From NCBI GenBank assembly GCA_963662545.2, contig CAXXLL010000002.1:2527135-2591134 (forward strand): a stretch of 64,000 nucleotides of DNA. The letters run 5' to 3'. The translations under genes were made by a program, and so were the position numbers. The stretch's first letter is position 1; each line of letters begins with the position of its first letter. The DNA is from Gammaproteobacteria bacterium. GTDB lineage: Bacteria; Pseudomonadota; Gammaproteobacteria; Ga0077536. The notes under the pieces are model-generated. The model was given only the letters and a program-made list of their open reading frames with translations, had not been told where the DNA came from and did no database searches. Of this stretch, positions 42,245-61,177 are shown one piece after another.

Positions 42245-42390
42245 ACGACCGATTCTGTACGACAGCCGAAGTCGGCGTTCCGCATCGCTCTTGCAGCAGT
42301 TTGACGACCGCTTCTGGGGAAATCGCAGACGTTATTTAGAGCAATGCTGCACTGCGGTGGTTAGGCCGCTGACGACCCATAACGGCCATC
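42245..42390 (+). repeat. Composite repeat R2 (units 0+A+B, unoccupied)
   Basis: ...cagccgaagt-33nt-gaccgcttctggggaaatcgcagacgt-31nt-ggccgctgacgacccataacggccat. Confidence 0.88.
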
Positions 42391-42792
42391 GGCAGCAAAT
42401 TTACCGCGATTACTATTGACCGAAACGGAAGCGAAGGGAAAGCCGCAGATCGCCTTTTTTATGTCGTCAACGAATTCGGGCAGCGCCCTTTTTATAACGC
42501 CAATAAAAATTGCCCCCGGTGTTCAGGGAAACCAGCGGGGGCAATTAGGGTAGGGATCTTGCAACTTAATTATAGTACACAGCGTCACCTGGTGCCTTTT
42601 GAAAACGGGCTACAAAACGGCCATTCCACCGAAACACCAACCCCAACCCATGGGTAACCCTACGCTGACCTGATTAGGCCAACACGCGCCCCGAAAAGGG
42701 GCATTTCCGGCGAGCCAGGGCCACTCGAATATTCAGCACACGACAAGGTATACGGAGTTGGCGGCGAATCGGTTTAATGGGTTTTGGAAGGA

Positions 42793-43470
42793 TTAGTACG
42801 ACTCTTCCGTTTCAAGTTCGGAAAAGCTGACCGCGAGTATCTCGCGTATAGAGGTTGCCTTGTTTTCTGCTTGCTCGACGACCAGCAGCTTTTGCGATTC
42901 AAGCAGTCCTGCCGGGATCACCATGCGTCCGCCTGGAGCAAGCTGGTTGAGTAGCGGCGGTGGGATTAGGTCTGGGGCAGCAGTGACTAGGATGCGATCG
43001 TATGGCGCGTGCTCCGGCAACCCGCATGATCCGTCCCCGATTTCGAGTGTGATCTTCTTCGAGTAACCGTGCCGTTCGAGCCGTGAGCGCGCTTGCACCG
43101 CAAGTTCTTTGATGATCTCGATGCTGTAGACGTTATTACAGAGCTCCGCAAGGATCGCCGTTTGGTAGCCTAACCCGGTGCCAATCTCAAGCACTCGGTG
43201 CTCCGATTCGACCCCAGGCAGATCAGTCATCAGAGCGACCATAAATGGTTGCGAGATAGTCTTGTCGTAGCCAATGGGAAGCGGAGTATCTTCGTAGGCG
43301 TAGAGCTGCAACTCCACAGGCACATATTCGTGCCGCGGCACCGCGCTCATTGCGCTCATTACTGACGTTGAGAAGGCAGGCCGTCCAGTGTGCTCAGCGG
43401 CAAAGTATGCGTGTGTTGCGATCGCATTGAGCATTTGCTGCCGCTCCGCTTCGAGGTAATTGCCTTCCAT
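42793..43470 (-). CDS. pcm: Protein-L-isoaspartate O-methyltransferase
   Basis: VPRHEYVP, TISQPFMVA, VLEIGTGLGYQTA, APYDRILVTAA. Confidence 0.93.
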   Translation of the reverse strand: MEGNYLEAERQQMLNAIATHAYFAAEHTGRPAFSTSVMSAMSAVPRHEYVPVELQLYAYEDTPLPIGYDKTISQPFMVALMTDLPGVESEHRVLEIGTGLGYQTAILAELCNNVYSIEIIKELAVQARSRLERHGYSKKITLEIGDGSCGLPEHAPYDRILVTAAPDLIPPPLLNQLAPGGRMVIPAGLLESQKLLVVEQAENKATSIREILAVSFSELETEESY

Positions 43471-43822
43471 CCTCGCCTACGGCACAACGCTTCGCTGATA
43501 CCCTTCTTTAGCGCACATACACTATTCACTTGGCGGTCGTATTACAGTTAATTTTAGGCGGCCTTCAAGCAGCTTTCCTATGCGGTCTTGTTGATGGTTA
43601 ATGAAGACTGTCGCTTTCGTCCCGAAACTCCGGCGCTTCCACCGCCTCCTTAATCCGCGCCCGCCAGCTCGCCCACGGTCCTGTCGGCGGCTTCCATGAG
43701 GCTTTCGGGTGCTTTCTCGTCGCTCCGTGTCACGCTAATGAAGGCTGCTATGACTTCGGTGGCGTCGTCCAGCGTTTTATACAAGTCGTGAAAGCCGGGT
43801 AGACCCGTTTCGTGCTTTTCAG

Positions 43823-44182
43823 TCATGAGGCTAGGTATTCAGTGCAGGGGAAGGCTTCCATGAGCGCATTGAGCACCAAGCTGCCGCCGCTCAGATGTAA
43901 CTTTGCTGGATGCGCTTCAAGGTACTTCACGACGACGAGCCTGAGCTGATCTTGCGTTACCTCGTCTGGCGAACAAAATTTCTGAGGTAAGTCGCCCCAT
44001 TCCACCCAGACGTTATGGGTATCATAAGCCGACGCTATGTAGCCGTGGCAGTATATGAATTTCATGCCTCGGGGAGTCTCAGCGCAGTCCGATAACATTT
44101 CGTTGCCGGTAATGAAAGACTCCACTGCTGCCCCCGCATTCCCAGAAACACACAGCAAAGCAATAAGCAAAAACTTCTTCAC
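43823..44182 (-). CDS. Rap1a/Tai-family immunity-like secreted protein
   Basis: Signal peptide, TGNEM..DC, C.GYI, FC.P, VVVKYLE.HP..LH, AFPC. Confidence 0.78.
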   Translation of the reverse strand: MKKFLLIALLCVSGNAGAAVESFITGNEMLSDCAETPRGMKFIYCHGYIASAYDTHNVWVEWGDLPQKFCSPDEVTQDQLRLVVVKYLEAHPAKLHLSGGSLVLNALMEAFPCTEYLAS

Positions 44183-44337
44183 CGGACACCCCCTCGCGCA
44201 TACCTACGGCAAGAATACGGCAAGAGAGGAGTTTATCGGGTCACTCTGAAAATTCGGCCTCCTGTATTACGTTCTAAGCGACGTTCTCGATCTGACCCAT
44301 ACCGTAGCATCCCCTTGTTCTGGCCCTGGGTTACTAT

Positions 44338-44538
44338 TTGGGCGGGATGAACATAAAACGCGGTTTCAAGCGGCTGCTCATCGCTCTGACAGTGATTTGG
44401 CTTGGGTTGGGATTGATGTATTGGATCGACAGGCCGTCGTATTTTATTGAACACCATTTCGCCCTCTTCATAGAAACGACGGTGACCGCATGGGTGCTGT
44501 TCTACCTTTTGCAGTTGCTTATCCCCGATGACGACTGA
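44338..44538 (+). CDS. Small two-TM hypothetical protein
   Basis: NIKRGFKRL followed by two hydrophobic stretches. Confidence 0.45.
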   Translation: MGGMNIKRGFKRLLIALTVIWLGLGLMYWIDRPSYFIEHHFALFIETTVTAWVLFYLLQLLIPDDD

Positions 44539-44896
44539 TAAAAGCATCCAGAAGCTGGTCGATGCCGCGCTCGCTATCGAAGCGATGGCAGCCTAGATCT
44601 ATGTGTTGAGCAATGGCGTAGGCCATGTAGCCCTCAGAGAGGCTGTGGACGCGCCTGAGTTGGCTGGGACGGGCAAACGCGACATACATTAAGAGGCCTT
44701 GGTGGGTGCAAGGGTGTGGGATGACTTCTTGGCAGAGTTTTGTAAGGTCGAGTTTCTAAGTAATAAACGAGAGCTAAATTGGCTTGGGTGCTTTGTTTGG
44801 GGGTGGGCGTCTACCGTATTGGCGCGTGGCGAGTGTCACGGGAATCGCGTCCCAAGGTGGAACGAAACTGATTAGTGATATACAGGGTGGACGGCC

Positions 44897-45210
44897 CTAC
44901 CTTGGAATTGAAGCTATAGAAGGCATTTGCTCCCATACCGCTCCGTCGAGAATGTGCCCATTTGCTTTCTTCGAGCGGCGAACTCCATCGGGGCCATGAG
45001 TACCCCATTGCTTGAAGAAAAACTCGACCCTGTCGCGCCTGCATTGCTCTTTGACAGCTCGCACCCATTCAGGCTGCATCGGACGGGCTTTGTGTCCCGA
45101 TTCTCCCTCAACTATGACCCAAGAAATACCTGCGAAATCGATTGGCCCTAAATCCTCCACCAGAGGTTCGACGGACAAGAATCGTATCGACGCTTCGACT
45201 CGCGCTAATA
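44897..45210 (-). pseudogene. Phage Gp37/Gp68 (DUF5131) C-terminal fragment
   Basis: RFLSVEPL, WVIVEGESG..ARPM..EWV, FFFKQWG; abuts an orphan IS end (aattcgccacccaca, ~45217-45231). Confidence 0.8.
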
Positions 45211-45312
45211 TTTACTAATTCGCCACCCACAGGTTCTGCAAAGTCCATTCACTTCGTGATTCATAGCCGGAAGTTAAACGATCCGTGTAATTACGGGCGA
45301 GTCGAAATCTGT

Positions 45313-46278
45313 CTACACGAATATCGATTTCGGCATGTGGTAGGTCACGTGGCTCGCATGCCCGTCGCCGAGCACCGGTACGGCGATCTTCAAGTCGCCC
45401 GCGATGCTGCAGATCATGTAAGCATCTGCGCGATCAATCCCGCGGGTCCGTTCCAGCGTGTCGATCATGAGCCGTACCGCATCTTCCACGCTCGTGTGCA
45501 AATCGGGACCCGTGCCACAGGTGACGTAGTGGCCCAAGCCGTCAACCTTGCTGGTCGTCGGACCGCTGGTCTCGAAGCGCGCCGCGGGGATCTCCATCCC
45601 TTTGATCAAGCTGAAGCGCATGGTCACATCCAAGGGGGCTTCGATCGCGATGCCGGCTACTTCCCCATCGCCTTGCGCGAGGTGACCGTCGCCGGTTGAA
45701 AACAGGGCGCCCGGTACTTTGACCGGGAAATACACCGTGCAGCCCTTGCCCGTGTGGCGGCAATCCATGTTGCCGCCGTGTATCGTCGGCGGCATCGTCG
45801 GATGCGGTCCGGGTTCCGCCCAGGCGACGCCCATCTCACCCATGAACGGTTCAATCGGCACCTTAACGCCCGGAATAGCAGAAGTGGCGCAGCCCTCCTC
45901 TCCCACCGTCCAGATGCGCACGGCTTTGGTGTCGCCGAACTCTGCGCGCAACAGACCGAAATTTGGAATGACCGAGGTCCAGCCCCAACCGTGATGCCCC
46001 AATTCCAATATTTCGACTTTCAAAGTATCGCCAGGTACGGCGCCGCGCATCTCCACGGGGCCGGTCAAAGCATGGACTCGATCCCAATCGAGATCGTCCA
46101 GGACGGCGACGGTCGAGTCCTGCGTGAACTGTCCATCGCAGGCCTCCCGGCACACCATCGTCACGATGTCGCCGCTATCGATGCTGAGGGCGGGTGGGAT
46201 TGAATTGTCGTAGCGGTAGTGAATCGTCTCGTTCAGGAAATGGACCGTTCCTGGCAGTGGGCTCAAGCGGGTGGACAT
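45313..46278 (-). CDS. Acetamidase/formamidase family protein
   Basis: HALTGPV..GAVPGD.L, HGGNMD, GDGHLAQGDGEV. Confidence 0.93.
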   Translation of the reverse strand: MSTRLSPLPGTVHFLNETIHYRYDNSIPPALSIDSGDIVTMVCREACDGQFTQDSTVAVLDDLDWDRVHALTGPVEMRGAVPGDTLKVEILELGHHGWGWTSVIPNFGLLRAEFGDTKAVRIWTVGEEGCATSAIPGVKVPIEPFMGEMGVAWAEPGPHPTMPPTIHGGNMDCRHTGKGCTVYFPVKVPGALFSTGDGHLAQGDGEVAGIAIEAPLDVTMRFSLIKGMEIPAARFETSGPTTSKVDGLGHYVTCGTGPDLHTSVEDAVRLMIDTLERTRGIDRADAYMICSIAGDLKIAVPVLGDGHASHVTYHMPKSIFV

Positions 46279-46352
46279 GGCAATCCCCTCCTGCGAATGG
46301 GTCATTATTGTAATCGATGATTGTCGGCGACGGGCTTGGGGCCGTCAATTCG

Positions 46353-46500
46353 TCACAATCGTATATCGCGAATAGCACCTAGTACGCGATGCGGTAAGGC
46401 GGGGACGTGGTAGATCCATACGCCGGTGGCATGGTGAATGGCGTTCAAGATCGCGGCCGGCGTCGGTATCAGGGCGGGCTCGCCCACGCCTTTGGCGCCG
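46353..46500 (-). pseudogene. Xanthine dehydrogenase-family Mo-subunit C-terminal fragment
   Basis: FGAKGVGEP......AAILNAIHHATGV; begins at the edge of R3. Confidence 0.8.
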
Positions 46501-46511
46501 AACGCTACTGG

Positions 46512-46761
46512 ATGTCTGCTATGGAGGGTATTGCAGACGTAACTTTGAGCAGTGTTGCGGTAGCGCGATCCGGCGGCTATCGACCCAGACTGTGTGAAAA
46601 CTATTTTCATTTTTCAAAAGTGGGGGAACTACCCTCGAAATTGGATCTAATTGAAATGCCGATCCCTATTCGAGGGGCATAACAACTATGCTGGTGGGGA
46701 ATATTTTTATTTCGTCGTCGTATTTTTGAGTTTTCACACACTCTGGACCCATTCCGGACAT
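46512..46761 (+). repeat. Composite repeat R3 (unit B interrupted by MITE)
   Basis: atgtctgctatggagggtattgcagacgt-31nt-ggcggctatcGACC[MITE]GACCcattccggacat. Confidence 0.88.
46586..46745. mobile_element. 160-bp IS1182-type MITE, copy 1
   Basis: cagactgtgtgaaaact / agttttcacacactctg, GACC duplication. Confidence 0.92.
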
Positions 46762-46839
46762 CAGTGTGGAGCTTGATTGCAGTCGGACCGGAGCGGTGGC
46801 GAAGGAAGGGCGTGGTCAAGTATCGGCTGGAGAGCGGGG

Positions 46840-47328
46840 CTAGGCGTCACGGTTGAGTGCTTCATTAACAATCTCTGCGAAGGCAGGAACAATGTGGATA
46901 TTGGTGGACTCCCACCAAGCCTTGCCTCCAGAGCGTCCAATCCATTGCCTGATTAAGTCAGTTAATGCGCTTTCCCAGATTTCTTTGGCGAGCACCCCGT
47001 CATTATATCTTGACCAGGTGAGAAGGAATGTCCAGACAATATCCCACATGAAGCTATCGAATCGAATTCGCTCAGTTTTGTTCAGTTGATCGTAATTGTC
47101 GAGTCCCTTCTCTACCAGATCAGCGATTGCTCCATCGGACGCAATGAAGAATCGGTGGCGAGAATGCATTTCGAAGAGCTGTCCCAAGCCAGATTGCCGA
47201 ATATCAGCGGAACTCTCTTTCATTTGACGAGTGTTCTGCCGAAGTTGAATTGCCAAATAGATAAGAGTCACGATAACGGCGATGGACGCAATAAAGTCAC
47301 CCAGATTCCCTAATTCTTCTAATGTCAT
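46840..47328 (-). CDS. Family-X protein (N-terminal TM anchor), cassette-like
   Basis: LGNLGDFIASIAVIVTLIYLAIQLRQNT...GGKAWW; GTTAGGC upstream (47348-54), attC-like tail downstream. Confidence 0.8.
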   Translation of the reverse strand: MTLEELGNLGDFIASIAVIVTLIYLAIQLRQNTRQMKESSADIRQSGLGQLFEMHSRHRFFIASDGAIADLVEKGLDNYDQLNKTERIRFDSFMWDIVWTFLLTWSRYNDGVLAKEIWESALTDLIRQWIGRSGGKAWWESTNIHIVPAFAEIVNEALNRDA

Positions 47329-47427: not shown

Positions 47428-47559
47428 TCAAGTATTTTGGCCGTAGGCGGAAGTCAGCGCCAGCAATGATATCCAGGCATTTTGGATGACTGCTTCCGAG
47501 AGTATTGCAGACGTAATCCTTGCCAGTGCTGCGCTGCAGCGATTAGGCAGCTAACGACC
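47428..47559 (+). repeat. Composite repeat R4 (right arm resumes at 49245-49260)
   Basis: ttggccgtaggcggaagt-33nt-gactgcttccgagagtattgcagacgt-31nt-ggcagctaacGACC. Confidence 0.88.
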
Positions 47560-49244
47560 CAGAGTGTGTGAAAACTCGGAATGAAGAGGAATCACGTCGA
47601 GAACTCCTCGTCAGACGCAACGCGGCGCGGTTACGACGGCCGCGCTCGCGGTCCAATGCGATCGGTTAGTTAATGGAACATTCCTTAGAACGGCCCCAGA
47701 AGCCGGCAGTGAAGCCGTGGATCAGGGAGTTTTCGAGGCCACAGAGGGTCTCATGCCGTCATCGCTTCGATGAGCGTAGCGACACCCAGTAGATTCATCA
47801 CGCGTTTCATGTTGTAAGCGAGCACGTGCAGACTCATTTCCGTACCAACGTGTTTCAGCGTGCGCATCTGGAAGTGGGTCGAACCCATCCAGGATTTGAT
47901 CGTGCCAAATGGATGCTCGACCGTCTCTCGGCGGACACGCATAGGGTCAGGTTCACGATCCAATCGCGCCTGCACCGCTTCAACAACCGCTTCATGTTCC
48001 CAACGGCTGACGCGCCGGTATCGACCCGTTGTGCATTTAGATTTGATCGGGCAGCGGGGACACGCCGAACTCCAGTAGCGCCGGATCTGCTTGCCTTTCT
48101 CCACTCGGGTGAACCGGTAAATCAGTCGCTCACCGGCCGGGCATTCATACGCATCCTCTTCGGGTTGGTAAATGAAGTCGCGCTTGCCAAACAAGCCCTT
48201 CGCCTGGTTACCCGAGGTCTGCGGTTTCGGCAGATAGGTCGTGATGCCGGCTTTAGCGCACGCCAAGATCTCTTCGCCACTGAAGTACCCGCGATCCGCA
48301 ACGACGGTCAACTCCTTCTTATCCAGCGCCTCTTTGGCTTTCTCCGACATGTTCGACAGTTGCGCCCGGTCATGACCTACGTTCGTCACTTCATGTGCCA
48401 CAATCAGATGACTCTTCGTGTCGACCGCCGTCTGCACGTTGTACCCCACCATGCCGCTGCCACGGCCGCTCGTCGCCATCGAGCGCGCGTCCGGGTCCGT
48501 CAGTGAGACCTGATGGTCCGGCGTCTCCTCGAGCCGTACCTCGAGCTTTTTTAGGCGGCCTATCTCTTCCTTCAGTACCTCGATCTTGTCCTTCAAACGC
48601 TGCGACTTGTCACCTGACACCGCACGCTCCTGGCGGTCGGCACTTGCAATTTCCGCCAGGTACCGCTCAACGCTCTCGTCAATCTGCTGCAACCGACGTT
48701 TCAGCTTCGCCTTCGTGAAGTTCCGGTCACGGTTGTTTACCGCTTTGAACTTGCTGCCATCTATCGCCACGAAGGCTTCCGAAAACAGCTGCAGCTTACG
48801 GCACAGCATCACGAACTCCCGGCATACCAGACGAATGGCGTCACCGTTATCTTTGCGGAAATCGGCAATGGTCTTGAAATCAGGCGCCAGACGACCCGTC
48901 AGCCACATCAGTTCCACGTTCCGCTGCGCCTCCCGTTCCAGGCGACGGCTCGATTGAACCCGGTTCAGGTAACCGTAGATATAGAGCTTCAGCATCGTCG
49001 CCGGGTGATACCCCGGTCGACCCGTCTCATGCGCATCGGTTCTGAAACTCAGACCTGACAGATCCAACTCATCGACGAACACATCGATGACCCGCACCGC
49101 ACTCTCCTCAGCGACATAATCGTCCAGACACTCGGGAAACAGCGTTGTTTGGCGGCGGTCCGCGCCTTCAATGAACCCGCTCATCAACGACTCCCCAGGA
49201 CCGAAAGAGTGATCTTATCTGATGCAGAGTTTTCACACACTCTG
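47560..49244 (-). mobile_element. IS1182-family element copy 1 (1685 bp)
   Basis: Inverted repeats cagagtgtgtgaaaactc / gagttttcacacactctg, GACC duplication. Confidence 0.95.
47751..49187 (-). CDS. IS1182 transposase
   Basis: GRPGYHP, SSRRLER, PDFKTIADFR, IDGSK, TDPDAR, ADRGY, VEHPFGTIK. Confidence 0.95.
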   Translation of the reverse strand: MMSGFIEGADRRQTTLFPECLDDYVAEESAVRVIDVFVDELDLSGLSFRTDAHETGRPGYHPATMLKLYIYGYLNRVQSSRRLEREAQRNVELMWLTGRLAPDFKTIADFRKDNGDAIRLVCREFVMLCRKLQLFSEAFVAIDGSKFKAVNNRDRNFTKAKLKRRLQQIDESVERYLAEIASADRQERAVSGDKSQRLKDKIEVLKEEIGRLKKLEVRLEETPDHQVSLTDPDARSMATSGRGSGMVGYNVQTAVDTKSHLIVAHEVTNVGHDRAQLSNMSEKAKEALDKKELTVVADRGYFSGEEILACAKAGITTYLPKPQTSGNQAKGLFGKRDFIYQPEEDAYECPAGERLIYRFTRVEKGKQIRRYWSSACPRCPIKSKCTTGRYRRVSRWEHEAVVEAVQARLDREPDPMRVRRETVEHPFGTIKSWMGSTHFQMRTLKHVGTEMSLHVLAYNMKRVMNLLGVATLIEAMTA

Positions 49245-49348
49245 GACCCTTTGCGGTCATCCTCGACCCAAACCGGAAATGTCAGTGGTGTACCTTTACA
49301 TACGTTAGTTCGCTTCCCCGGATTCGGCTCCACACGCTGGCTACAAAG

Positions 49349-49867
49349 TTAAGATATCTTCTGAGTGCCTGTCCCAATCGTCGTAGTTTGGGATAGCTCG
49401 ACTCTTCCGACCGACTCGACACAGTCGAGAAACGACTTTGTGTAAATAGGCAGCGTCGATTCATCTGCCCACCACTCGGCAGATGCAGGGAATTGCACGA
49501 GGCCACTAAACGAAGTCAGGCGGGCCTCCCAAACTTCTGGGTCGAGCAAATTCGCCTTATATTGAAAATATTGTGCTTCCACCTGCTGTGCGAAAGCACG
49601 AAACGCGAAAGTAATGGCAGTCCTTTCCTTGTCACTGAAATTATCCAACTTTTCATTTGGATCGAATATACGAACTATCGTGTCTCTGTCCTGATGTTCG
49701 GAAATGATCAAGTTGTATCGTGACCATTCCATCTGGGACTTGGTGCCCGCATCAGCGCGCATCGTGCGAGTGTTCGAGCGAACTTCGTACGCAAGGTAGA
49801 GCACCGATAATATTACGCCGAGAGCACCCAAACTCTCGGCCGTAGCACTAATCGCCTCGAAATTCAT
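49349..49867 (-). CDS. Family-X protein (N-terminal TM anchor)
   Basis: AESLGALGVILSVLYLAYEVRSNT...LLDPEVW...EWW; GTTAGAT directly before the ATG. Confidence 0.8.
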   Translation of the reverse strand: MNFEAISATAESLGALGVILSVLYLAYEVRSNTRTMRADAGTKSQMEWSRYNLIISEHQDRDTIVRIFDPNEKLDNFSDKERTAITFAFRAFAQQVEAQYFQYKANLLDPEVWEARLTSFSGLVQFPASAEWWADESTLPIYTKSFLDCVESVGRVELSQTTTIGTGTQKIS

Positions 49868-49908
49868 ATCTAACACCTCCCGTCTGTAAACGAACACGTA
49901 GGATAGCG

Positions 49909-50158
49909 ACGACCGCTATGGAGAGTACTGCAGACGTGATCTGGAACAGTGCTGCACCGCAGCGAGGGGGCCGCTAACGACCCAGACTGTGTGAAAACTA
50001 TTTTCATTTTTCAAAAGTGGGGGAACTACCCTCGAAATTGGATCTAATTGAAATGCCGATCCCTATTCGAGGGGCATAACAACTATGCTGGTGGGGAATA
50101 TTTTTATTTCGTCGTCGTATTTTTGAGTTTTCACACAGTCTGGACCCATAGCGGTCAT
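49909..50158 (+). repeat. Composite repeat R5 (unit B interrupted by MITE)
   Basis: acgaccgctatggagagtactgcagacgt-31nt-ggccgctaacGACC[MITE]GACCcatagcggtcat. Confidence 0.88.
49983..50142. mobile_element. 160-bp IS1182-type MITE, copy 2
   Basis: Interior matches copy 1; GACC duplication. Confidence 0.92.
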
Positions 50159-50285
50159 CGCCGATCTGGACGAAAATCTAGTTATCCTTGCTGTTTTGAT
50201 TCGTTACCGACGGTGACGCTTTGTCGAATAATCGGGACGCGCATACTATGATTGTAGGGTCTATGCGCGATAGGACGACCACACC

Positions 50286-50945: not shown

Positions 50946-50989
50946 TAATCCGTACTCTGGAAACAGGTATTTAAATCTCGGGGCCTTCT

Positions 50990-51240: not shown

Positions 51241-51271
51241 AGTCAAGAACGCACTGCCCAAACGCTACAGA

Positions 51272-51345
51272 ACGACCGCTTACGAGCACATTGCAGACGT
51301 AATTCTTAGCAATGCTGCGCTGAGGCGACAGGGCAGCTAACGACC
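51272..51345 (+). repeat. Composite repeat R6 (right arm resumes at 53031-53046)
   Basis: acgaccgcttacgagcacattgcagacgt-31nt-ggcagctaacGACC. Confidence 0.88.
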
Positions 51346-53030: not shown

Positions 53031-53083
53031 GACCCTAAGCAGACCTTGTAGGTTCTTGTACTCTGACCTCAAACCATTAGCAG

Positions 53084-53791
53084 CTATTCAGCGCGCTGCT
53101 TATCCCAGCCGTTCCAGAACGTCACATCGCGCGCCGGGAAGCGTTTCGCGGGTCTTAAATCGCCACCCTTGAGCCAGGCGACCGGTAGCAGTACCGCCTG
53201 CGTGTAATGCGCAGGAACGCCGAGAAGTTCCTGGATCTCTTTTTCATACATCAGAGTGAATGTCGTCCAGGCCGACGCAACTCCGCGCGCGCGGAGCGCC
53301 AGCATCAACGACCAGGCCGCCGGTAGAATGGACCCCCACATGGAGCCTTGGGTAAAGACATCTTCGTGGTCGAAGCGGTTTTCCAGGAAAAGCATGATGT
53401 GTACGGGGACGCGGTGCAGATTTTCTATTAAATGGACCGCCGATTTGACGATTAGAGGCATTCTTTGCTGACGCGGGTCGTCGTCAGGGTACTGTTTATC
53501 GACGGCCACGCCGGTGCGCGTTACTCCGGTTTCACCGGCCAGGTAACGCTCCGCCCCCTGGCGATACAGGTCAGCTATACCCGAGCGTAAATGTTCATCC
53601 GTGACTACGACGAAGCGCCAGGTCTGAGAATTCGCTCCGGTCGGTGCCTGGAGCGCCACTTCGATCGCTTCTTCGATCAGTGATTCCGGAACGGATCGCT
53701 CGAGGTCGAGGCGCAGACGGACCGTGCGCGTGGTCTTCATAACATGATCGACGCTTGCGAGGTCGATTTTCTTGGGGGCTTGCTCCGCCAT
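53084..53791 (-). CDS. Nitroreductase family protein
   Basis: TTRTVR, QAPTGANSQTWRFVVV, LALRARGVASAW. Confidence 0.9.
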   Translation of the reverse strand: MAEQAPKKIDLASVDHVMKTTRTVRLRLDLERSVPESLIEEAIEVALQAPTGANSQTWRFVVVTDEHLRSGIADLYRQGAERYLAGETGVTRTGVAVDKQYPDDDPRQQRMPLIVKSAVHLIENLHRVPVHIMLFLENRFDHEDVFTQGSMWGSILPAAWSLMLALRARGVASAWTTFTLMYEKEIQELLGVPAHYTQAVLLPVAWLKGGDLRPAKRFPARDVTFWNGWDKQRAE

Positions 53792-53930
53792 ATCTGCTCT
53801 CCAAGTTCGTTGTGCGAACGGGGACGGATAGCCGTCTCCGACATATTACACAGGCGTTGCTCCGACGCCGCTGTGATTCGATATCATTGCGCCGCTCTTT
53901 GTCTGCCAAGTGGCGCAGCGCGTCCAATTG

Positions 53931-54797
53931 TTAGTCGTTCAGTTCAACCGTGTCGCCCTGTTTGATTTCACCGGGCACGCGCACATGGGCGCCAACGCCA
54001 AGGCATTGGTCGCCTTCCTTCACCACAGTGCGCAATATCGATTTGTCATATTCGATATCGGCTTGTGGTCTTACGGTCATACCGCAACGCACCGTCGGCA
54101 TGGTGATCTCGAGGGTTGCCGAGCCGATCGCCAGAGTCTTGCCGACCCAGTCGTTTTCGACCAGGCCCGTTACCGCCGGGTCGGTCTCGATGTAGAAGTT
54201 CGGACGAAAACGCCGGATATCCCAGTTCGCGCCGGGATTTTTCCTGCGCATGTAGTCCATCGACGCCGTGGTGATCATATGGATCTCCTCATTGTCGAAA
54301 AAAGTGCCGGGGACCGCGACATGATCCATCAGCACCTCTGGGAACAGAGACATCTCCGGTACCGGTTCGCCCGGCTCGCGCGCGAAAAGCTCCGTCATTT
54401 CCTCAAGGAATACTTGTTCGTCCGGTTTGTGGCGCTTGTAGAATTCGAGATTGCTAGCTGGTTCGATTGCGCGCAACGTCGCATCACGCTCGATCAATTC
54501 GCTCAGTTTAGCGTTGACCCGCGCATCGTCGCTGCCGATCGTTTGCCCGTCGGGGAACGTGATAACGACCGGTGTGATCGCATCATCGCTCGGCTCGGCG
54601 CGATACCGCGCCGAGCACAGCATGAGCTGCGGATAACGCTTGCCCCATGTAATCTCCGCCCGTCCCTCGTCGCGCATCGCCCAGCACCGGTCACCCGCGA
54701 CGCCGGTTTGAGTGACCTTGCAGCGCTCGATTGTGTCGCCCTGCATCGATTTCACCGGAAAACGCCAAATCTCCTTTATCACTCCAACGCGCGCCAT
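53931..54797 (-). CDS. MOSC domain protein
   Basis: WRFPVKSMQG, GDR.WA, RRFRPN, RCGM. Confidence 0.92.
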   Translation of the reverse strand: MARVGVIKEIWRFPVKSMQGDTIERCKVTQTGVAGDRCWAMRDEGRAEITWGKRYPQLMLCSARYRAEPSDDAITPVVITFPDGQTIGSDDARVNAKLSELIERDATLRAIEPASNLEFYKRHKPDEQVFLEEMTELFAREPGEPVPEMSLFPEVLMDHVAVPGTFFDNEEIHMITTASMDYMRRKNPGANWDIRRFRPNFYIETDPAVTGLVENDWVGKTLAIGSATLEITMPTVRCGMTVRPQADIEYDKSILRTVVKEGDQCLGVGAHVRVPGEIKQGDTVELND

Positions 54798-54913
54798 ATT
54801 CGACTCCTCGCCACTATTGCTGTATGCCCACTGTCAAGAGTAACTCCGTTAGACACCCGCGCGCACTTCAAATCGATGCCCGTCGAATAATCGAGCTCAG
54901 AGCAACAACTCAT

Positions 54914-55222
54914 AAGGTCTGTTATTGGCCGAGGCTGTGTCAAAAGTATTTTCGAATTTTGAAAGTGGGAGAAGTTTAACCCGATTCGCCTACCTTAGGC
55001 GGTGCGTTCCCTTAATCAATCGTGCATAACAACCTAAGTGGGGAAAATTTTCGCGGCGGGCTCCATTTTTCGACTTTTGACACAGCCTCGGCCGGAAGCC
55101 GAAGTCACCTCCAGCGATGTTTTCTAAACAAGCTGAATGGCCGCTTACGAGCGCATTGCAGACCTGACCCCAAGCAGTGCTGCACTGCCGCGAGGAGGCG
55201 GCTGACGACCCATTTCAGCCAC
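54914..55222 (+). repeat. Composite repeat R7 (unit 0 interrupted by MITE; A+B intact)
   Basis: ggtctgttattGGCC[MITE]GGCCggaagccgaagt-33nt-ggccgcttacgagcgcattgcagacct-31nt-ggcggctgacgacccatttcagcc. Confidence 0.88.
54931..55089. mobile_element. 159-bp IS1182-type MITE, second subfamily
   Basis: Inverted repeats gaggctgtgtcaaaagt / acttttgacacagcctc, GGCC duplication. Confidence 0.9.
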
Positions 55223-55328
55223 CCAAGCGAAATTTTCTCGACTTGCTGGCTGAGTTGACCGAGAGTCTCCCAGAGCGCCCGCGAAGAACATTGTACAATC
55301 CACTTCGACGCACAAGGGAGGAATCACC

Positions 55329-55706
55329 ATGTCAGAACGACACACCGAACTTTACGCAATCACATTGAAATTCCTCGACGCATTCAATCGTAACGATCTC
55401 GATGACGTCATGTCATTTTTCTCCAATGAAGCCGTTTATGAAGAGCTGCATGGCAAGATTAACGACGGCAAGGACGCGATTCGCGAAGCCTTTGTTCCCC
55501 AATTCGAAGGAAAGTTCGGCAAAATGGAGTTTATAGAAGACGACACTTTTATTGACGCTGACGCCGGCAAGATCATGAGCGGTTGGGATCTGCATATGGA
55601 AAAAGACGGCGGGCCAGTGGTGGTGAAAGGGCTTGATCTGCTTTACTTCGAGGGCGATAAAATTGTACGCAAGCAGACGTTTGTGAAGCAGAAAGATCCG
55701 TTGTAA
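55329..55706 (+). CDS. SnoaL/NTF2-like protein
   Basis: FLDAFNRNDLD.VM.FF..AVY, G.DL..FEGDKI. Confidence 0.85.
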   Translation: MSERHTELYAITLKFLDAFNRNDLDDVMSFFSNEAVYEELHGKINDGKDAIREAFVPQFEGKFGKMEFIEDDTFIDADAGKIMSGWDLHMEKDGGPVVVKGLDLLYFEGDKIVRKQTFVKQKDPL

Positions 55707-55821
55707 GAGAGACGCTCTGTAAGCCGGGGCCGAATCGACTCGATAAATAAATGGGGCCAAGCAAACACGACCGTGAACGCCGTGAATTTTTACTCTGGCC
55801 CCGAGGGATGAGGAGAGCGAG

Positions 55822-56316
55822 ATGACACTGCCTGATTCTGCAATCCTGCTCCGGCGTGGAGAGGGCGACTATGTGACCATCGGGACCGGCACTCGCTGTA
55901 CCTTTAAGCTCAGGGGGGAAAACACGGACGGGCATTTCGGTCTGTTCGAGTATGTGATGGAGCCTGGGACTGAAGGACCGCGGCGCCATATCCATCGTCA
56001 GATGGCGGAAATCTTCTACGTGGTCGAAGGAGAGCTCGAATTCATCGTTGGAGACGAGAAGATCACGGCCCGGGCCGGTACGACCGCCCTCGTCCCCAAG
56101 GAGGTTGTGCATGCCTTTTCCAACCCGGGCCCGCAGCGCTCGGTGTTGCTGGTTATGTTTTGCCCGGCAGACTCGCGTGAGAAATACTTCGAGGGGCTGG
56201 CTGAACTCCTCAAAGACGGGCAAGCGTCGGATCAAGAAGCCTTACTGGAGTTGATGCGGCAACATGACACCGAGCCGGTGGCGGAACCGCTCTATGGAGA
56301 AATAGATGCGCCGTAA
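55822..56316 (+). CDS. Cupin domain protein
   Basis: HIH...EIFYVVEG, VP..VVHAFSN. Confidence 0.88.
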   Translation: MTLPDSAILLRRGEGDYVTIGTGTRCTFKLRGENTDGHFGLFEYVMEPGTEGPRRHIHRQMAEIFYVVEGELEFIVGDEKITARAGTTALVPKEVVHAFSNPGPQRSVLLVMFCPADSREKYFEGLAELLKDGQASDQEALLELMRQHDTEPVAEPLYGEIDAP

Positions 56317-56368
56317 AGGAAGCTAGTGTGCTGTCCCGCAAGAAACTTACGCTCAAATAAATCTGTCC

Positions 56369-57721
56369 CTGAAGGCTCCCCACGAATTGAAGGAGAATTC
56401 ACATAAAAAATAGCCATTTAGAAAAATAAATAGCGAACAATAGGGAACATGCATGACGTTCGGTGATCAATAACGGTGACGAAACCAAATTGGTCACGGG
56501 AGAACGCCATGCATGCACTGAGATTGTTGCACAAAATAATGGGGCAAGCCTGTCCGCAGATACACGCGGTAAGGCTAACGGCATTGATGGCGAGCGTTGA
56601 GGCCCTTTTGGTCGGCCGTCAGATGAGCTTAGCCGGTCTTGGTCGCGCCTTGCTGTCGGGGGCGCGAGTCAAACACAACATCAAGCGAGTCGACCGGTTA
56701 ATTGGCAACCGTCATCTGTGGGGAGAACGAACGGAACTCTATGGGGCGATGGCGGGGCTGGTGCTTGGACAAGGACCACGTCCGGTAATTATTCTGGACT
56801 GGTCGGATATGCGCGAAGATCGGTCATGGCAGTTGTTGCGTGCGGCGGTTCCGGTGGGAGGCCGTTCACTGACGCTCTACGAAGAAGTACATCCCTTGTC
56901 GGCGTATGACAACCGGGGTGTCAGGAAACGGTTTCTGGAGCGTCTTCGAGAGATCTTACCACCGGGGTGTCGCCCGCTCTTAGTCACGGATGCCGGCTTC
57001 CGGACGACTTGGTTTAGACAGGTCGAAGCAATGGGTTGGGACTGGGTCGGTCGGGTCCGCGGGCGCACCCATTTCCGGCTGGACAACCAGGCAAGCTGGC
57101 AACCGTGCCGGACGTTGCATGCGATGGCCAACTCACGTGTGCGGCATATCGGGACAGTCGAACTAACGGTATCGAATCCATTGGCCTGTGACCTGTACCT
57201 GGTGAAGAAGAAAAAGCGTGGCCGTCAACAACTGACCTGCCGCGGCACGCGTGCCCGTGGTGGCCGCAGCCTTAGCTGTGAACGACGCCAGCGCGAACCC
57301 TGGATATTGGTCACCTCACTGGGGTCGCGCGCGGCCCAGCAGGTGATGCGGTGTTATCAGTTGCGCATGCAGATTGAGGAGAGTTTCCGGGATATGAAAA
57401 ATGCCCGTTTGGGACTGCACTTCCGCAGCGCGCGTTCCAACAGCGCCGAGCGGCTCTCGATCCTCGTCCTGATTGGTACGTTGGCAACATTAGTCGCTTG
57501 GTTAGTCGGCCAAGCGATGCAGCGTTTCGGGCTGCAGCGCCATTACCAGGCCAATACAACCCGGCATCGGCCGGTACTCTCCACCGTCTTTCTGGGCTTG
57601 CAAAGTTTTTGCAGGCAACCCGTAAAGCTTATGCTGGCAGACATCAAGCAATCGATTATCGCCTTACACCAAAATACCGCAAACCCGTTGCGTTATGCGT
57701 AAGTTCGTGGGGATCCTTCAG
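56369..57721 (+). mobile_element. IS4-family (IS10-like) element
   Basis: Inverted repeats ctgaaggctccccacgaa / ttcgtggggatccttcag; 9-bp duplication aatctgtcc. Confidence 0.93.
56509..57702 (+). CDS. IS4-family transposase
   Basis: ILDWS, TDAGFR, YQLRMQIEESFRDMK (YREK). Confidence 0.93.
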   Translation: MHALRLLHKIMGQACPQIHAVRLTALMASVEALLVGRQMSLAGLGRALLSGARVKHNIKRVDRLIGNRHLWGERTELYGAMAGLVLGQGPRPVIILDWSDMREDRSWQLLRAAVPVGGRSLTLYEEVHPLSAYDNRGVRKRFLERLREILPPGCRPLLVTDAGFRTTWFRQVEAMGWDWVGRVRGRTHFRLDNQASWQPCRTLHAMANSRVRHIGTVELTVSNPLACDLYLVKKKKRGRQQLTCRGTRARGGRSLSCERRQREPWILVTSLGSRAAQQVMRCYQLRMQIEESFRDMKNARLGLHFRSARSNSAERLSILVLIGTLATLVAWLVGQAMQRFGLQRHYQANTTRHRPVLSTVFLGLQSFCRQPVKLMLADIKQSIIALHQNTANPLRYA

Positions 57722-57725
57722 AATC

Positions 57726-57856
57726 TGTCCCCTTTGGCAGAGAGCCGAAGTTGCCGCCGCCGCTCACTGTTACGTAAGTCGAGTGACCGCTTACAAGCGC
57801 ATTGCAGACGTAATCTAGGGCGGTGCTGCACTGCCGCGATTAGGCCGCTGACGACC
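57726..57856 (+). repeat. Composite repeat R8 (right arm resumes at 59542-59557)
   Basis: ttggcagagagccgaagt-33nt-gaccgcttacaagcgcattgcagacgt-31nt-ggccgctgacGACC. Confidence 0.88.
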
Positions 57857-59541
57857 CAGAGTGTGTGAAAACTCGGAATGAAGAGGAATCACGTCGAGAA
57901 CTCCTCGTCAGACGCAACGCGGCGCGGTTACGACGGCCGCGCTCGCGGTCCAATGCGATCGGTTAGTTAATGGAACATTCCTTAGAACGGCCCCAGAAGC
58001 CGGCAGTGAAGCCGTGGATCAGGGAGTTTTCGAGGCCACAGAGGGTCTCATGCCGTCATCGCTTCGATGAGCGTAGCGACACCCAGTAGATTCATCACGC
58101 GTTTCATGTTGTAAGCGAGCACGTGCAGACTCATTTCCGTACCAACGTGTTTCAGCGTGCGCATCTGGAAGTGGGTCGAACCCATCCAGGATTTGATCGT
58201 GCCAAATGGATGCTCGACCGTCTCTCGGCGGACACGCATAGGGTCAGGTTCACGATCCAATCGCGCCTGCACCGCTTCAACAACCGCTTCATGTTCCCAA
58301 CGGCTGACGCGCCGGTATCGACCCGTTGTGCATTTAGATTTGATCGGGCAGCGGGGACACGCCGAACTCCAGTAGCGCCGGATCTGCTTGCCTTTCTCCA
58401 CTCGGGTGAACCGGTAAATCAGTCGCTCACCGGCCGGGCATTCATACGCATCCTCTTCGGGTTGGTAAATGAAGTCGCGCTTGCCAAACAAGCCCTTCGC
58501 CTGGTTACCCGAGGTCTGCGGTTTCGGCAGATAGGTCGTGATGCCGGCTTTAGCGCACGCCAAGATCTCTTCGCCACTGAAGTACCCGCGATCCGCAACG
58601 ACGGTCAACTCCTTCTTATCCAGCGCCTCTTTGGCTTTCTCCGACATGTTCGACAGTTGCGCCCGGTCATGACCTACGTTCGTCACTTCATGTGCCACAA
58701 TCAGATGACTCTTCGTGTCGACCGCCGTCTGCACGTTGTACCCCACCATGCCGCTGCCACGGCCGCTCGTCGCCATCGAGCGCGCGTCCGGGTCCGTCAG
58801 TGAGACCTGATGGTCCGGCGTCTCCTCGAGCCGTACCTCGAGCTTTTTTAGGCGGCCTATCTCTTCCTTCAGTACCTCGATCTTGTCCTTCAAACGCTGC
58901 GACTTGTCACCTGACACCGCACGCTCCTGGCGGTCGGCACTTGCAATTTCCGCCAGGTACCGCTCAACGCTCTCGTCAATCTGCTGCAACCGACGTTTCA
59001 GCTTCGCCTTCGTGAAGTTCCGGTCACGGTTGTTTACCGCTTTGAACTTGCTGCCATCTATCGCCACGAAGGCTTCCGAAAACAGCTGCAGCTTACGGCA
59101 CAGCATCACGAACTCCCGGCATACCAGACGAATGGCGTCACCGTTATCTTTGCGGAAATCGGCAATGGTCTTGAAATCAGGCGCCAGACGACCCGTCAGC
59201 CACATCAGTTCCACGTTCCGCTGCGCCTCCCGTTCCAGGCGACGGCTCGATTGAACCCGGTTCAGGTAACCGTAGATATAGAGCTTCAGCATCGTCGCCG
59301 GGTGATACCCCGGTCGACCCGTCTCATGCGCATCGGTTCTGAAACTCAGACCTGACAGATCCAACTCATCGACGAACACATCGATGACCCGCACCGCACT
59401 CTCCTCAGCGACATAATCGTCCAGACACTCGGGAAACAGCGTTGTTTGGCGGCGGTCCGCGCCTTCAATGAACCCGCTCATCAACGACTCCCCAGGACCG
59501 AAAGAGTGATCTTATCTGATGCAGAGTTTTCACACACTCTG
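57857..59541 (-). mobile_element. IS1182-family element copy 3
   Basis: Same ends, length and protein; GACC duplication. Confidence 0.95.
58048..59484 (-). CDS. IS1182 transposase
   Basis: Same 478-aa translation. Confidence 0.95.
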   Translation of the reverse strand: MMSGFIEGADRRQTTLFPECLDDYVAEESAVRVIDVFVDELDLSGLSFRTDAHETGRPGYHPATMLKLYIYGYLNRVQSSRRLEREAQRNVELMWLTGRLAPDFKTIADFRKDNGDAIRLVCREFVMLCRKLQLFSEAFVAIDGSKFKAVNNRDRNFTKAKLKRRLQQIDESVERYLAEIASADRQERAVSGDKSQRLKDKIEVLKEEIGRLKKLEVRLEETPDHQVSLTDPDARSMATSGRGSGMVGYNVQTAVDTKSHLIVAHEVTNVGHDRAQLSNMSEKAKEALDKKELTVVADRGYFSGEEILACAKAGITTYLPKPQTSGNQAKGLFGKRDFIYQPEEDAYECPAGERLIYRFTRVEKGKQIRRYWSSACPRCPIKSKCTTGRYRRVSRWEHEAVVEAVQARLDREPDPMRVRRETVEHPFGTIKSWMGSTHFQMRTLKHVGTEMSLHVLAYNMKRVMNLLGVATLIEAMTA

Positions 59542-59782
59542 GACCCTTATGCGACATTCGTCGATTTCGACAACTACCCTAATAGAAAGCAGCGCGGCCT
59601 TCGGAAAGGCGGTAAGCAAAGCGGGCAACACCGTTGTCGCGGCGCCCATAACTGGGCGCAGACTGGGAAGCCCGGAGGTCATCGTTTTCGTTCAAATTTC
59701 GGTGACCGAGGGATTAGAATTCGAATCCTGACGAGAATATCGTCCCTCCATCACCCTTTTTTCCGAAGGAACCGACTAAATC

Positions 59783-60688
59783 ATGATTGAAGCGCACGAG
59801 ACCTTCGACGGCACCTGGCCGTTTGCTCCGAATTTCTTCCACGGCAACGGCTTTGCGATGCACTACGTGGATGAAAACCCCGAAGGCACAGAGACGTTTC
59901 TTTGCGTCCACGGAGAACCTACCTGGGGCTACCTCTACCGGAACATCATTCCACGATTGGCGAGGCATGGCCGCGTGGTGGTCCCGGATCAGATGGGCTT
60001 CGGCAAAAGCGAAACGCCACAGGACCGTCGATACACCATCGAAGAGCACTGCGAGAATTTGGACAAGCTGGTACTCGAGCTTGATTTAACCAACCTGACG
60101 TTGGTGCTGCAGGACTGGGGTGGGCCGATAGGCAGTGCGGTTGCATACCGCCACCCTGAAAGGGTCAAACGGCTTTGCGTCATGAATGCGATTGTCGGTG
60201 GCCGCTCCAAGGAAAGCTCGTCTGTGTTCAGCACATCACCGTGGCCCGTGTGGGTTGCCGGGCCTTCTTTTGAACCGACCATCCACAACTTGAACAGTAC
60301 CGTGCTGTCGGTAATGAAACGCGTCGGTTTCGAACGCACTGCCGATATCGACGAGACTTGGGTTCGCGCCTACGCCGCGCCCTTCCCAACGCCTGAGTCA
60401 TGTATAGCGGCCTACCGCTTTCCGCAATGTATCGCCGACAGGGAAACGGTGGATTACCTCAAATCCATCCGCACGCCGGAGGCCGTCGCTTCGGTAAAGC
60501 AAAAGCCCGCCATGATGGTGTTCGGCGAGGCCGACCGCGCGCTGCCTCAATCATTTACCATCGGGTGTTTTAAAGATTTGTGGCCCGACGCGCCGGTTGT
60601 CACGCTACCTGGCGTCGGGCATTTTCTACAGGAGGATGCGCCGGAGACGGTGTCGGCGCTGATTGAACAGTTTGTCCAGATGACGTGA
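59783..60688 (+). CDS. Haloalkane dehalogenase-like alpha/beta hydrolase
   Basis: HGEPTWGYLYR, QDWGG nucleophile elbow, GHFLQEDAP. Confidence 0.85.
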   Translation: MIEAHETFDGTWPFAPNFFHGNGFAMHYVDENPEGTETFLCVHGEPTWGYLYRNIIPRLARHGRVVVPDQMGFGKSETPQDRRYTIEEHCENLDKLVLELDLTNLTLVLQDWGGPIGSAVAYRHPERVKRLCVMNAIVGGRSKESSSVFSTSPWPVWVAGPSFEPTIHNLNSTVLSVMKRVGFERTADIDETWVRAYAAPFPTPESCIAAYRFPQCIADRETVDYLKSIRTPEAVASVKQKPAMMVFGEADRALPQSFTIGCFKDLWPDAPVVTLPGVGHFLQEDAPETVSALIEQFVQMT

Positions 60689-60868
60689 TGACGATGACTT
60701 GCGCCTTTAAGGAACCTCTGAACAGTAATTATCTCGGTCCGTATAAAAATAACGGGCGAACATCATTTAGAAACCCAGTAACAGTGTTTATTTCCATGGT
60801 GACGGGAGTTTAGCGCGAGGATCTGCCCGGCGGTCAACCATTTTTATACAGACAGCGCGACGGACTTA

Positions 60869-61177
60869 ACGTTTGTTGTTGGCCGAGAACCGTCCTGCTC
60901 CGCTAACGTTCCGCCCAATGCTACTCGACGACCGCTTTCGGGCGCATAGAAGACGTAACGTTTAGCAATGCTGCATTGCCGCGAGGCGGCGGCTCACGAC
61001 CCAGAGTGTGTGAAAACTATTTTCATTTTTCAAAAGTGGGGGAACTACCCTCGAAATTGGATCTAATTGAAATGCCGATCCCTATTCGAGGGGCATAACA
61101 ACTATGCTGGTGGGGAATATTTTTATTTCGTCGTCGTATTTTTGAGTTTTCACACAGTCTGGACCCTTTGCGGACAT
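60869..61177 (+). repeat. Composite repeat R9 (unit B interrupted by MITE)
   Basis: ttggccgagaaccgtcct-33nt-gaccgctttcgggcgcatagaagacgt-31nt-ggcggctcacGACC[MITE]GACCctttgcggacat. Confidence 0.88.
61002..61161. mobile_element. 160-bp IS1182-type MITE, copy 3
   Basis: Interior matches copies 1 and 2; GACC duplication. Confidence 0.92.

Follow-up and report, generated by a model that had tools for sequence, protein, structure and literature searches.

The Repeat Array at the End of Contig C2

The DNA analyzed here (the window) is a stretch of 64,000 nucleotides, the final 64 kb of contig C2 (CAXXLL010000002.1) in the genome of a gammaproteobacterium (GCA_963662545.2, hereafter G000; 5.58 Mb, 58% G+C, three contigs), and its subject is an intergenic repeat of ~145 nt whose copies stand at the joints between modules of accessory genes. 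A first-pass annotation had listed nine co-oriented copies in the window, R1 as an outlier and R2–R9 as an array, and had proposed that they are the sites of a gene-cassette capture platform. Our repeat search recovered all nine at 72–86% identity over 74 nt, with unit A, one of the three units of each copy, starting at 21708, 42306, 46514, 47488, 49911, 51274, 55139, 57785, and 60930, always on the + strand. Open reading frames (ORFs) were called by length, with no gene finder. Two congeners, G001 and G002, served for comparison, which makes three genomes of the genus in all. Regions of the window are 99.8–100% identical to contig C3 of G000 and may partly be assembly redundancy at the contig end.

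R1 (21648–21795, +; nhmmer 80.7 bits) is uninterrupted and is the first copy after the core genes (a DUF480 gene ends at 21533). R2 (42246–42392, +), delimited by repeat search and alignment, is also uninterrupted and comprises unit0, unit A at 42306, and unit B; downstream lie the last 25 codons and the stop of a FimB/FimE-like tyrosine invertase gene (42719–42796, +; tblastn 96% over 25 aa). The module between R2 and R3 (42793–46305, −) carries a PCMT gene (42793–43470), a Rap1a-like gene (43823–44182), an ORF (44233–44547), and a formamidase/acetamidase gene (45313–46305). Pfam agreed with the annotated contents here and for the isochorismatase, nitroreductase, MOSC, SnoaL, and cupin genes described below. 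The left part of R3 (46454–46585, +) runs up to the GACC of the unit B loop, in which sits a 161-bp miniature inverted-repeat transposable element (MITE; 46586–46746) derived from an insertion sequence (IS) of the IS1182 family, and the right part follows at 46747–46765; the MITEs of the window were delimited by reading the sequence. Next come X protein 1 (46840–47328, −; 162 aa), a small membrane-anchored member of what a family search revealed as an expanded family, and R4 (left part 47428–47559, +; right part 49246–49265), whose unit B loop holds an IS1182-family IS (47560–49245, −; transposase 47751–49187, 478 aa) with GACC duplicated. The module of X protein 2 (49349–49897, −; 182 aa) is 99% identical to C2:670813–671482 in another array. 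R5 (left part 49911–49982, +, with unit0 unclear; right part 50144–50165) is split by a further 161-bp MITE (49983–50143), and the module between R5 and R6 holds the isochorismatase-family gene (50286–50945, +).

The left part of R6, delimited by alignment (51274–51345, +), supplies the left half of the element targeted by a composite transposon (51346–59542), which is 99.8% identical to C3:909923–918197 and has its empty site at C3:13498. Its left bounding IS1182 copy (51346–53031) is followed by the nitroreductase (53084–53791, −) and MOSC (53931–54797, −) genes and by R7 (55079–55225, +), which is uninterrupted and has an IS terminal-repeat remnant, TTTTGACACAGCCTC, abutting its unit0 loop. 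The cargo continues with SnoaL (55329–55706) and cupin (55822–56316) genes and an IS4-family IS (transposase 56476–57702), then the left half of R8, which is split by the right bounding IS1182 copy (57857–59542). The right part of R8 (59543–59565, +) consists of the GACC duplication and the unit B right arm, and is the right half of the target. The gene annotated as a dehalogenase in the next module (59783–60688, +) encodes an alpha/beta hydrolase, and the module is shared with G002 at 97.7% identity and with C3:12087–13424 at 100%. R9 (left part 60870–61001, +; right part 61163–61183) is split by a third 161-bp MITE (61002–61162), and the final module before the contig end carries a luciferase-like monooxygenase gene (61911–62855, +; Pfam).

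The two X proteins matched no known family: the X family has no Pfam or NCBIfam match, and a protein-cluster search with X protein 2 returned clusters of hypothetical proteins only. The two are distant paralogs (25% identity, E = 2e-8), with a further match in the window at 42064–42186. The family has ~40 matches in G000, of which ~20 lie in repeat arrays, four in a classical attC array (C2:988840–993445), and one beside a second integron integrase gene.

IS91-like elements, each with a tyrosine recombinase of 293–319 aa and a Y2 transposase, occur at window 63550–64000, C3:6584–9421, C2:623520–627523, and C3:920803–923640, and one copy probably caused the contig break at the window end. A dif-like 28-mer (GGTGCGTATAA CTCCTC TTATGTCAAAC) lies in the last module at 63033–63060, ~500 bp from the end of an IS91-like element, and recurs at C3:9912. 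The enoyl-CoA hydratase gene of the window (19280–20083) in G002 directly precedes the tRNA-Ser region that starts C3 of G000 (G002:C74, L094); the whole window array is thus an island absent from G002, and it is probable that C2 adjoins C3 in G000. The tRNA-Ser region itself is duplicated in inverted orientation (C3:4663–6094 and C3:20980–22292).

Anatomy of the Repeat

The nine window copies were aligned after in silico excision of IS and MITE sequence, and three further sets were used, namely 50 uninterrupted copies, 22 aligned copies, and 120 distinct copies for the stem-pairing test. The element is ~145 nt long and consists of three units of 26–27 nt that resemble repetitive extragenic palindromic (REP) sequences, with unit0 inverted and units A and B direct, joined by conserved linkers of 31–33 nt. 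The consensus of unit0 is ...ttGGCCG..aGCCG.CGT, then ~33 nt to unit A (GACCGCTTacGAGcGcATTGCAGACGTAA), a linker of ~31 nt containing GTGCTGCaCTGCCGCGA, and unit B (GGCcGCTgACGACCCa.aGCGG.CAT), which resumes beyond the excised insertions (GACCC..GCGG.CAT). The arms of the units are 7 bp long (GnCCGCT/AGCGGnC) and enclose a loop of ~10–12 nt. The fixed three-unit geometry described initially stood for units A and B, the spacing of which is constant in all nine window copies, but unit0 is weaker than claimed and is inverted rather than a third direct unit. By eye, unit0 is recognizable in R2, R4, R7, R8, and R9 and unclear in R1, R3, R5, and R6, and its left arm is weakly conserved in the consensus of 50 copies. 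Because the unit B weight matrix matches unit0 on the reverse strand, unit0 is an inverted unit B-like site, which gives the 145-nt element inverted ends of 26 nt.

Such ends would suit a non-autonomous transposon, a MITE in its own right, in which unit0 and unit B were 26-bp terminal inverted repeats served by a transposase encoded elsewhere; its size and inverted-end layout also recall Correia elements as portrayed in the relevant part of one account (PMC1797815). We regard this explanation as quite improbable, because the orientation of the copies is non-random and they are not dispersed, the outer ends show no conserved target duplication, no full-length element bounded by these ends was found, and unit0 has a poorly conserved left arm. 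Nor was an empty site found for the singletons at C3:2018454 and C3:2752028, the flanks of which lie on different contigs in G001 and G002, and for R1 the relatives yielded the enoyl-CoA hydratase flank alone.

Among the 120 distinct copies, stem positions of unit B paired in 64% of cells, compared to 29–38% in shifted controls; the "stem" of unit A retained three conserved mismatches, and compensatory changes were no commoner than in shifted controls. When three copies were folded as DNA, both strands of each, z-scores ranged from −2.45 to +1.12 and no shared hairpin emerged. These unremarkable folds and the lack of a compensatory excess point to a double-stranded DNA motif. Over the whole window no Rfam family reached its gathering threshold, R7 had no Rfam match at E ≤ 1, and neither a sigma-70-like promoter nor a terminator was found in R7.

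The last results bear on whether the element might be a cis-regulatory region (a promoter, operator, or leader) of the cassette genes, particularly those of the X family. By hand count, 16 of the ~20 array X-family genes point away from the element, with the start codon ~95–160 nt from unit A. Against this, X genes outside the arrays lack the element and no rule of gene orientation holds over all elements: on the unit0 side 47 genes point toward the element and 41 away (19 without a gene, 2 at an IS end), and on the unit B side 18 point away and 21 toward (13 without a gene). A regulatory identity is highly improbable. Two other identities were rejected. The 31–33-nt "spacers" are conserved between copies (e.g., GTGCTGCACTGCCGCGA) and there are only three units per site, which rules out a clustered regularly interspaced short palindromic repeat (CRISPR) array; as for a coding remnant, the information profile shows by eye no three-base periodicity, and the frames carry stop codons.

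Comparison with the Integron of the Same Genome

In keeping with the first-pass annotation, the repeat is not part of a classical integron, and a canonical one exists elsewhere in the genome. Two IntI genes of G000 exceed the TIGR02249 cut-off of 265 (462.5 and 461.1 bits). The first, at C2:996723, stands beside at least 11 attC sites in a classical integron (C2:982000–997700; L009, L010), and the second, at C3:1527239, has no adjoining array; both are more than 60 kb from any repeat array. An IntI without an array of its own, together with the presence of X-family genes in both the attC array and the repeat arrays, might suggest that the repeats are divergent attC sites, i.e., a cluster of attC sites lacking integron integrases (CALIN), used in trans by one of the two IntI of G000. 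The true attC sites of G000 are, however, entirely different, being ~122 nt long with the form CCTAAC...GTTAGG. The RYYYAAC and GTTRRRY boxes are lacking in the repeat consensus of 50 copies and in that of 120, the would-be AAC position in unit B varies (GAC, CAC, ATC, AAA), and the repeat has neither a conserved AAC...GTT pair nor a long imperfect hairpin. Genes are also not co-oriented with the sites: the longest ORF of IS-free modules has the orientation of the repeat in 22 cases and the opposite one in 15, in agreement with the earlier observation that cargo points in both directions. Finally, G002 has the repeat and no IntI-like match. The missing boxes, the lack of a hairpin, and the unlikeness to real attC sites rule out attC identity, and use in trans as a CALIN is extremely improbable.

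Insertion of an IS1182-Family Element into the Repeat

Six of the nine window copies are split at one identical base of unit B, R4, R6, and R8 by a 1686-bp IS and R3, R5, and R9 by the 161-bp MITE. The IS and the MITE have common terminal inverted repeats (CAGAGTGTGTGAAAAC...), and GACC is duplicated in each case. The transposase belongs to the IS1182 family (NF033551, 466.5 bits, cut-off 270; Pfam domains DUF772, DDE_Tnp_1, and DDE_Tnp_1_6). GACC/GGTC half-sites border 79 of the 79 ends of this IS/MITE family found in G000. Over the 109 copies for which insertions and interruptions were counted, 13 carry the 1.68-kb IS, 16 the MITE, and 1 a truncated IS, and three other insertion types occur at or beside the same unit B spot; unit B is incomplete, the repeat match stopping early, in 54. 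An IS-end remnant abuts the unit0 loop in several copies, and the IS occurs in either orientation with respect to the element. This IS1182-family IS, its ~160-bp MITE, and some further elements target the loops of the outer units for insertion. One further type begins with GGTAGAGTAAGGATG after GCTGACG (C2:1635250, C3:15198, and C3:2555745; 3 copies with 500–890 bp in common), and another with TATT[CG]TGTTGAAAAAGTC after GACC (5 copies, C2:76111, 76737, 445064, C3:2556024, and 2557911).

Two IS copies lying in two elements can move the intervening DNA as a composite transposon, here of 8.2 kb, into the loop of a third element. The filled site is in the window, where positions 51272–59546 are 99.8% identical to C3:909923–918197, with IS copies bounding both and GACC on both sides of the composite insert. 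The flanks of the window insert (50150–51346 and 59542–64000) are contiguous at C3:14621–8971, where one intact element marks the empty site. This composite IS1182 transposition is the sole movement that was fully reconstructed.

In G009, a genome of another genus, a 60%-identical IS1182-family IS occupies a related palindromic unit, inside its loop, with 4 bp (GGCA) duplicated, and loop-targeting seems, from this case, to be a trait of the IS lineage. The G009 site (L101, G009:C8:71300–74000, positions 409–438 and 2075–2104) reads GGTCGGTTGTGGGCA | CAAAGCGGAC.

Distribution of the Repeat

A profile built from the nine window copies and run with nhmmer over the 5.58 Mb of G000 (E ≤ 1e-3) gave 115 matches, 108 of them in 12 clusters and 7 as singletons. 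Among adjacent copies ≤20 kb apart, 94 of 96 pairs were co-oriented. The two largest clusters adjoin (39 copies, C2:612976–748947), and the clusters together cover ~270 kb, ~4.8% of G000. This clustered and co-oriented pattern is the opposite of the scatter between core genes that the first-pass annotation had associated with ordinary dispersed repeats. Replication direction was ruled out as the setter of orientation, since both orientations are found inside the positive-skew part of C2. Two arrays other than that of the window begin right after a tRNA gene and a P4-type integrase gene.

A wider survey used a sequence-only covariance model of the 22 aligned copies over 41 genomes. Both congeners were positive, with 27 matches in G001 and 7 in G002, and none of the 22 searched genomes from other genera of the same family gave a match. 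G038, of another family, had four weak matches. They correspond to clustered palindromic units of a related kind (GACCGCT-N10-AGCGGAC; L036, L040), the orientation of which is mixed or alternates as in bacterial interspersed mosaic elements (BIMEs); these units suggest that the unit family predates the genus. A pattern scan of genome contigs found only the contig of G002 and two short contigs of metagenome-assembled genomes; 3 of 16 pattern loci on metagenome contigs were true by nhmmer, viral contigs gave 0 matches, and plasmids gave no match. The public runs containing the stretch are mostly sponge and marine metagenomes, which is a loose habitat hint only. In the short Logan contigs of four runs, apparent "joints" with sides of 25–36 nt were merely other repeat copies.

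Exchange of Modules and Positions of the Breakpoints

The core genomes of the species are ~90–92% identical, and the content of the arrays is almost wholly different. When all inter-repeat segments of G000, G001, and G002 were compared, many modules recurred in other arrays beside other neighbors. One such module, of 2.1 kb, is present at C2:442897, C2:682907, and G001:C14:16639, and the hydrolase module of the window recurs at C3:12087 and in G002. The order of modules X and Y differs between G000 and G002, a permutation whose junction maps to +58..70 of one element. In shared non-IS matches the orientation of the module to the repeat was kept, apart from seven inverted matches, of which four fall on G000 segments of repeated or IS-like sequence, two are between C2:710185–714750 and G001, and one is internal to G001. 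The comparison supports the view that modules have been gained, lost, and reordered, both between arrays and among the three genomes of the genus, and that the breakpoints fall at the repeat or within it.

That much of the first-pass proposal held; a single breakpoint did not emerge. IS-linked breaks lie in the unit B loop (4 pairs) and the unit0 loop (2 pairs). IS-free breaks were found at about −40 in unit0 for two pairs (C2_76111 vs. C3_929932; G001:C14 vs. C2:1624419), at +20..37 (C3_359255 vs. C3_909147), at +36..49 (C3_930674 vs. C2_1113568), at +57/58 for two pairs (C2_247939 vs. G002; C2_682862 vs. C2_445064), and at +73..79 (C2:442897 vs. C2:682907), i.e., seven events at no fewer than five positions, somewhat enriched at the outer units. 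Breaks within modules, distant from any repeat, also occur in recent duplicates (≥99.7% identity). Breaks at five or more positions and within modules argue that there is no single crossover point. The clusters of breaks at unit B and the unit0 loop coincide with the IS targets.

The same observations can be read as the work of a dedicated, integrase-independent cassette system, in which the palindromic 26-bp units would be core sites of a site-specific recombinase, and crossover in the loop of unit B or of the inverted unit0 would release modules as circles that re-insert directionally, with accessory roles for unit A and the linkers. The co-orientation of 94 of 96 neighboring pairs, the module orientation kept across arrays and species, the X/Y permutation with its junction in one element, three to four older IS-free breaks in or beside unit B and two in the unit0 loop, and the conserved blocks within the element are all in its favor. 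Three sub-sites over ~145 bp also recall the layout of the res site and internal resolution site (IRS) of transposons. Homing of IS to true recombination sites is known from the IS1111-attC group and the res-site hunters. The IS1202 family is reported to home to pdif (PMC10132070). The breaks at +20..37, at +36..49, and within modules misfit a single crossover, and the arms are 10–12 bp apart, wider than the 6–8-bp overlap of tyrosine recombinases. Such a system is unlikely, though not remote, and it would call for an enzyme.

Search for a Cognate Recombinase

Across G000, G001, and G002 no recombinase or HUH gene co-occurred with the arrays, and the enzyme that the first-pass annotation had suggested looking for was not found. 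G002, 95% complete and with 7 repeat matches, has only two PF00589 matches (182 and 174 bits), which we read as XerC and XerD; with no more than this XerC/XerD-like pair in G002 and no intact serine recombinase in G000, a dedicated cassette system lacks a candidate enzyme. The only serine recombinase match (PF00239) of G000 is a broken gene in the window (24395–24721, −) with one stop and a 113-aa frame. A dif candidate at C2:2180004, likely the chromosomal dif and two mismatches from what we take to be the dif consensus, is unlike the units, which also argues against such a system.

The tyrosine recombinases of the arrays are likewise unfavorable to it, being parts of IS91-like elements or P4-type island integrases. 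Those internal to the arrays belong to IS91-like elements, in which they form the upstream gene; G000 has five to six copies or remnants of these elements with a linked integrase, all in or beside arrays. Those at array starts are P4-type island integrases beside tRNA genes. The IS91-like elements were rejected as cognate, since weaker Y2_Tnp matches lie elsewhere in G000, only fragments occur in G001 and G002, and their ends are inconsistently at units. A FimB/FimE-like tyrosine invertase family of 207 aa occurs at C2:486757–487386, C3:1447161–1447751, and C3:352207–354608, besides the window fragment, with one gene split by an IS; three of four occurrences are at arrays, and two genes immediately precede the first element of an array. 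This family was ruled out as cognate, because searches of G001 and G002 did not recover it and the DNA downstream of the gene shows no conserved site; inverted unit-like sites noticed by eye near C2:486 kb gave no score. Six of seven Y1_Tnp matches were scanned and none was flanked by clear units: four had no unit within ~1 kb, one had weak unit B-like matches (≤17 bits), and the matches at an array-internal gene fragment were also weak.

Interpretation

We tentatively favor, at a little below an even balance, the explanation that the repeat is a genus-specific intergenic mosaic, similar to BIMEs and to neisserial intergenic mosaic elements (NIMEs), that acts as an IS target and as portable homology. 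The element lies where accessory-gene modules meet, in hypervariable islands that are in part linked to tRNA genes; an IS1182 lineage homes to it, and its copies move modules as composite transposons, as shown once; and co-oriented copies would provide portable homology through which general recombination or gene conversion could excise, re-insert, and reorder modules. Re-insertion of the Campbell type leaves all copies co-oriented and would account for their uniform orientation. A dedicated recombinase would not be needed. We infer that the arrays are integron-like in outcome, not in mechanism, and the capture platform proposed at first was not found as a dedicated system, composite IS1182 transposition being the sole reconstructed movement.

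Several observations weigh against this explanation. Several of the older breaks concentrate at unit B or next to it (+57..79) and at the unit0 loop, as would fit a crossover site, and homologous recombination is deduced from the breakpoints. REP/BIME families are normally dispersed, yet 108 of the 115 copies are in 12 clusters and 94 of 96 pairs are co-oriented, and generic units outside the arrays were not above a reversed-sequence control. The IS orientations are mixed, so that composite transposition alone should yield some inverted elements, yet there are almost none. Strongly conserved blocks such as ATTGCAGAC and GTGCTGCACTGCCGCGA also suggest binding by a protein, for which pure homology has no need.

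In its fullest form the alternative is a second cassette system, independent of the integron integrase and existing beside the classical integron, in which a recombinase would act on the outer-site loops of the 145-bp joints, over 100 in number, co-oriented, and each made up of three palindromic core sites. It would excise, capture, and reorder modules that carry promoters of their own and point either way. This recombinase could be supplied by the host or come from a protein family with no link to recombination so far, and the IS1182 lineage would have evolved homing to the joints, as IS1111-attC elements home to attC. We consider this unlikely.

Under either explanation, ~270 kb (4.8%) of the genome consists of accessory modules strung between copies of one repeat, alongside a normal integron. 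If the repeats are only portable homology and IS landing pads, as the mosaic explanation has it, they would be a clear case outside Neisseria of repeat arrays organizing gene flux, in which an IS with a strict target turns a passive repeat into a scaffold for module shuffling. If a dedicated enzyme exists, the arrays would represent a new class of cassette platform without the orientation and promoter constraints of the integron. The pair of filled and empty sites and the comparison of three genomes make the question testable.

Comparison with Known Systems

The REP sequences and BIMEs of Enterobacteria and Pseudomonas are imperfect palindromic extragenic mosaics to which IS1397, ISKpn1, and ISPpu9/10 home. 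The repeat resembles them in its extragenic, imperfectly palindromic units, arranged in mosaics with conserved linkers, and in IS insertion into the unit loop; it differs in that it is not dispersed, has no association with REP-associated tyrosine transposases (RAYTs), shows no selection for a hairpin, and is targeted by an IS of the IS1182 family. With attC arrays and CALINs it shares a co-oriented repeat between accessory modules of ~1–4 kb, a content that varies between relatives, and a site-specific IS, but it lacks AAC/GTT boxes, a folded bottom strand, and an integrase at the end, and its genes point either way. Like the res/IRS of Tn3-family transposons, which have three protein-binding sub-sites over ~115–145 bp with exchange at an outer sub-site, it has three sub-sites, its own protein binding and exchange being putative; in contrast, no cognate resolvase was found, and the copies number more than 100, against a single one in each transposon. 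The dif modules of Acinetobacter (PMC6449649, PMC10132070) are non-integron modules shuffled between replicons, with a dedicated IS family homing to the sites. As in those modules, the DNA between joints is flanked by short inverted sites (unit B on the left and inverted unit0 on the right), but the units do not resemble dif, each pair of sites encloses a conserved 95-bp segment that contains a third unit, and the arrays are chromosomal.

The closest described analog is the neisserial NIME array, in which dRS3 units flank RS elements. Both have short units with inverted arms and conserved spacers of 30–150 bp, and both adjoin variable genes and collect IS insertions (PMC1797815). The structure and the association with variable genes are present in our arrays, and a role in recombination is suggested by the breakpoints. 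In contrast to NIMEs, the repeat has exactly three units per joint in a fixed geometry, modules of 0.3–22 kb between joints, array joints that are all co-oriented, a unit sequence unrelated to dRS3, and a host in a sponge-associated genus of Pseudomonadota. According to that account, no NIME array had been seen beyond Neisseria, and its authors left open the same two mechanisms that are weighed here (PMC1797815).

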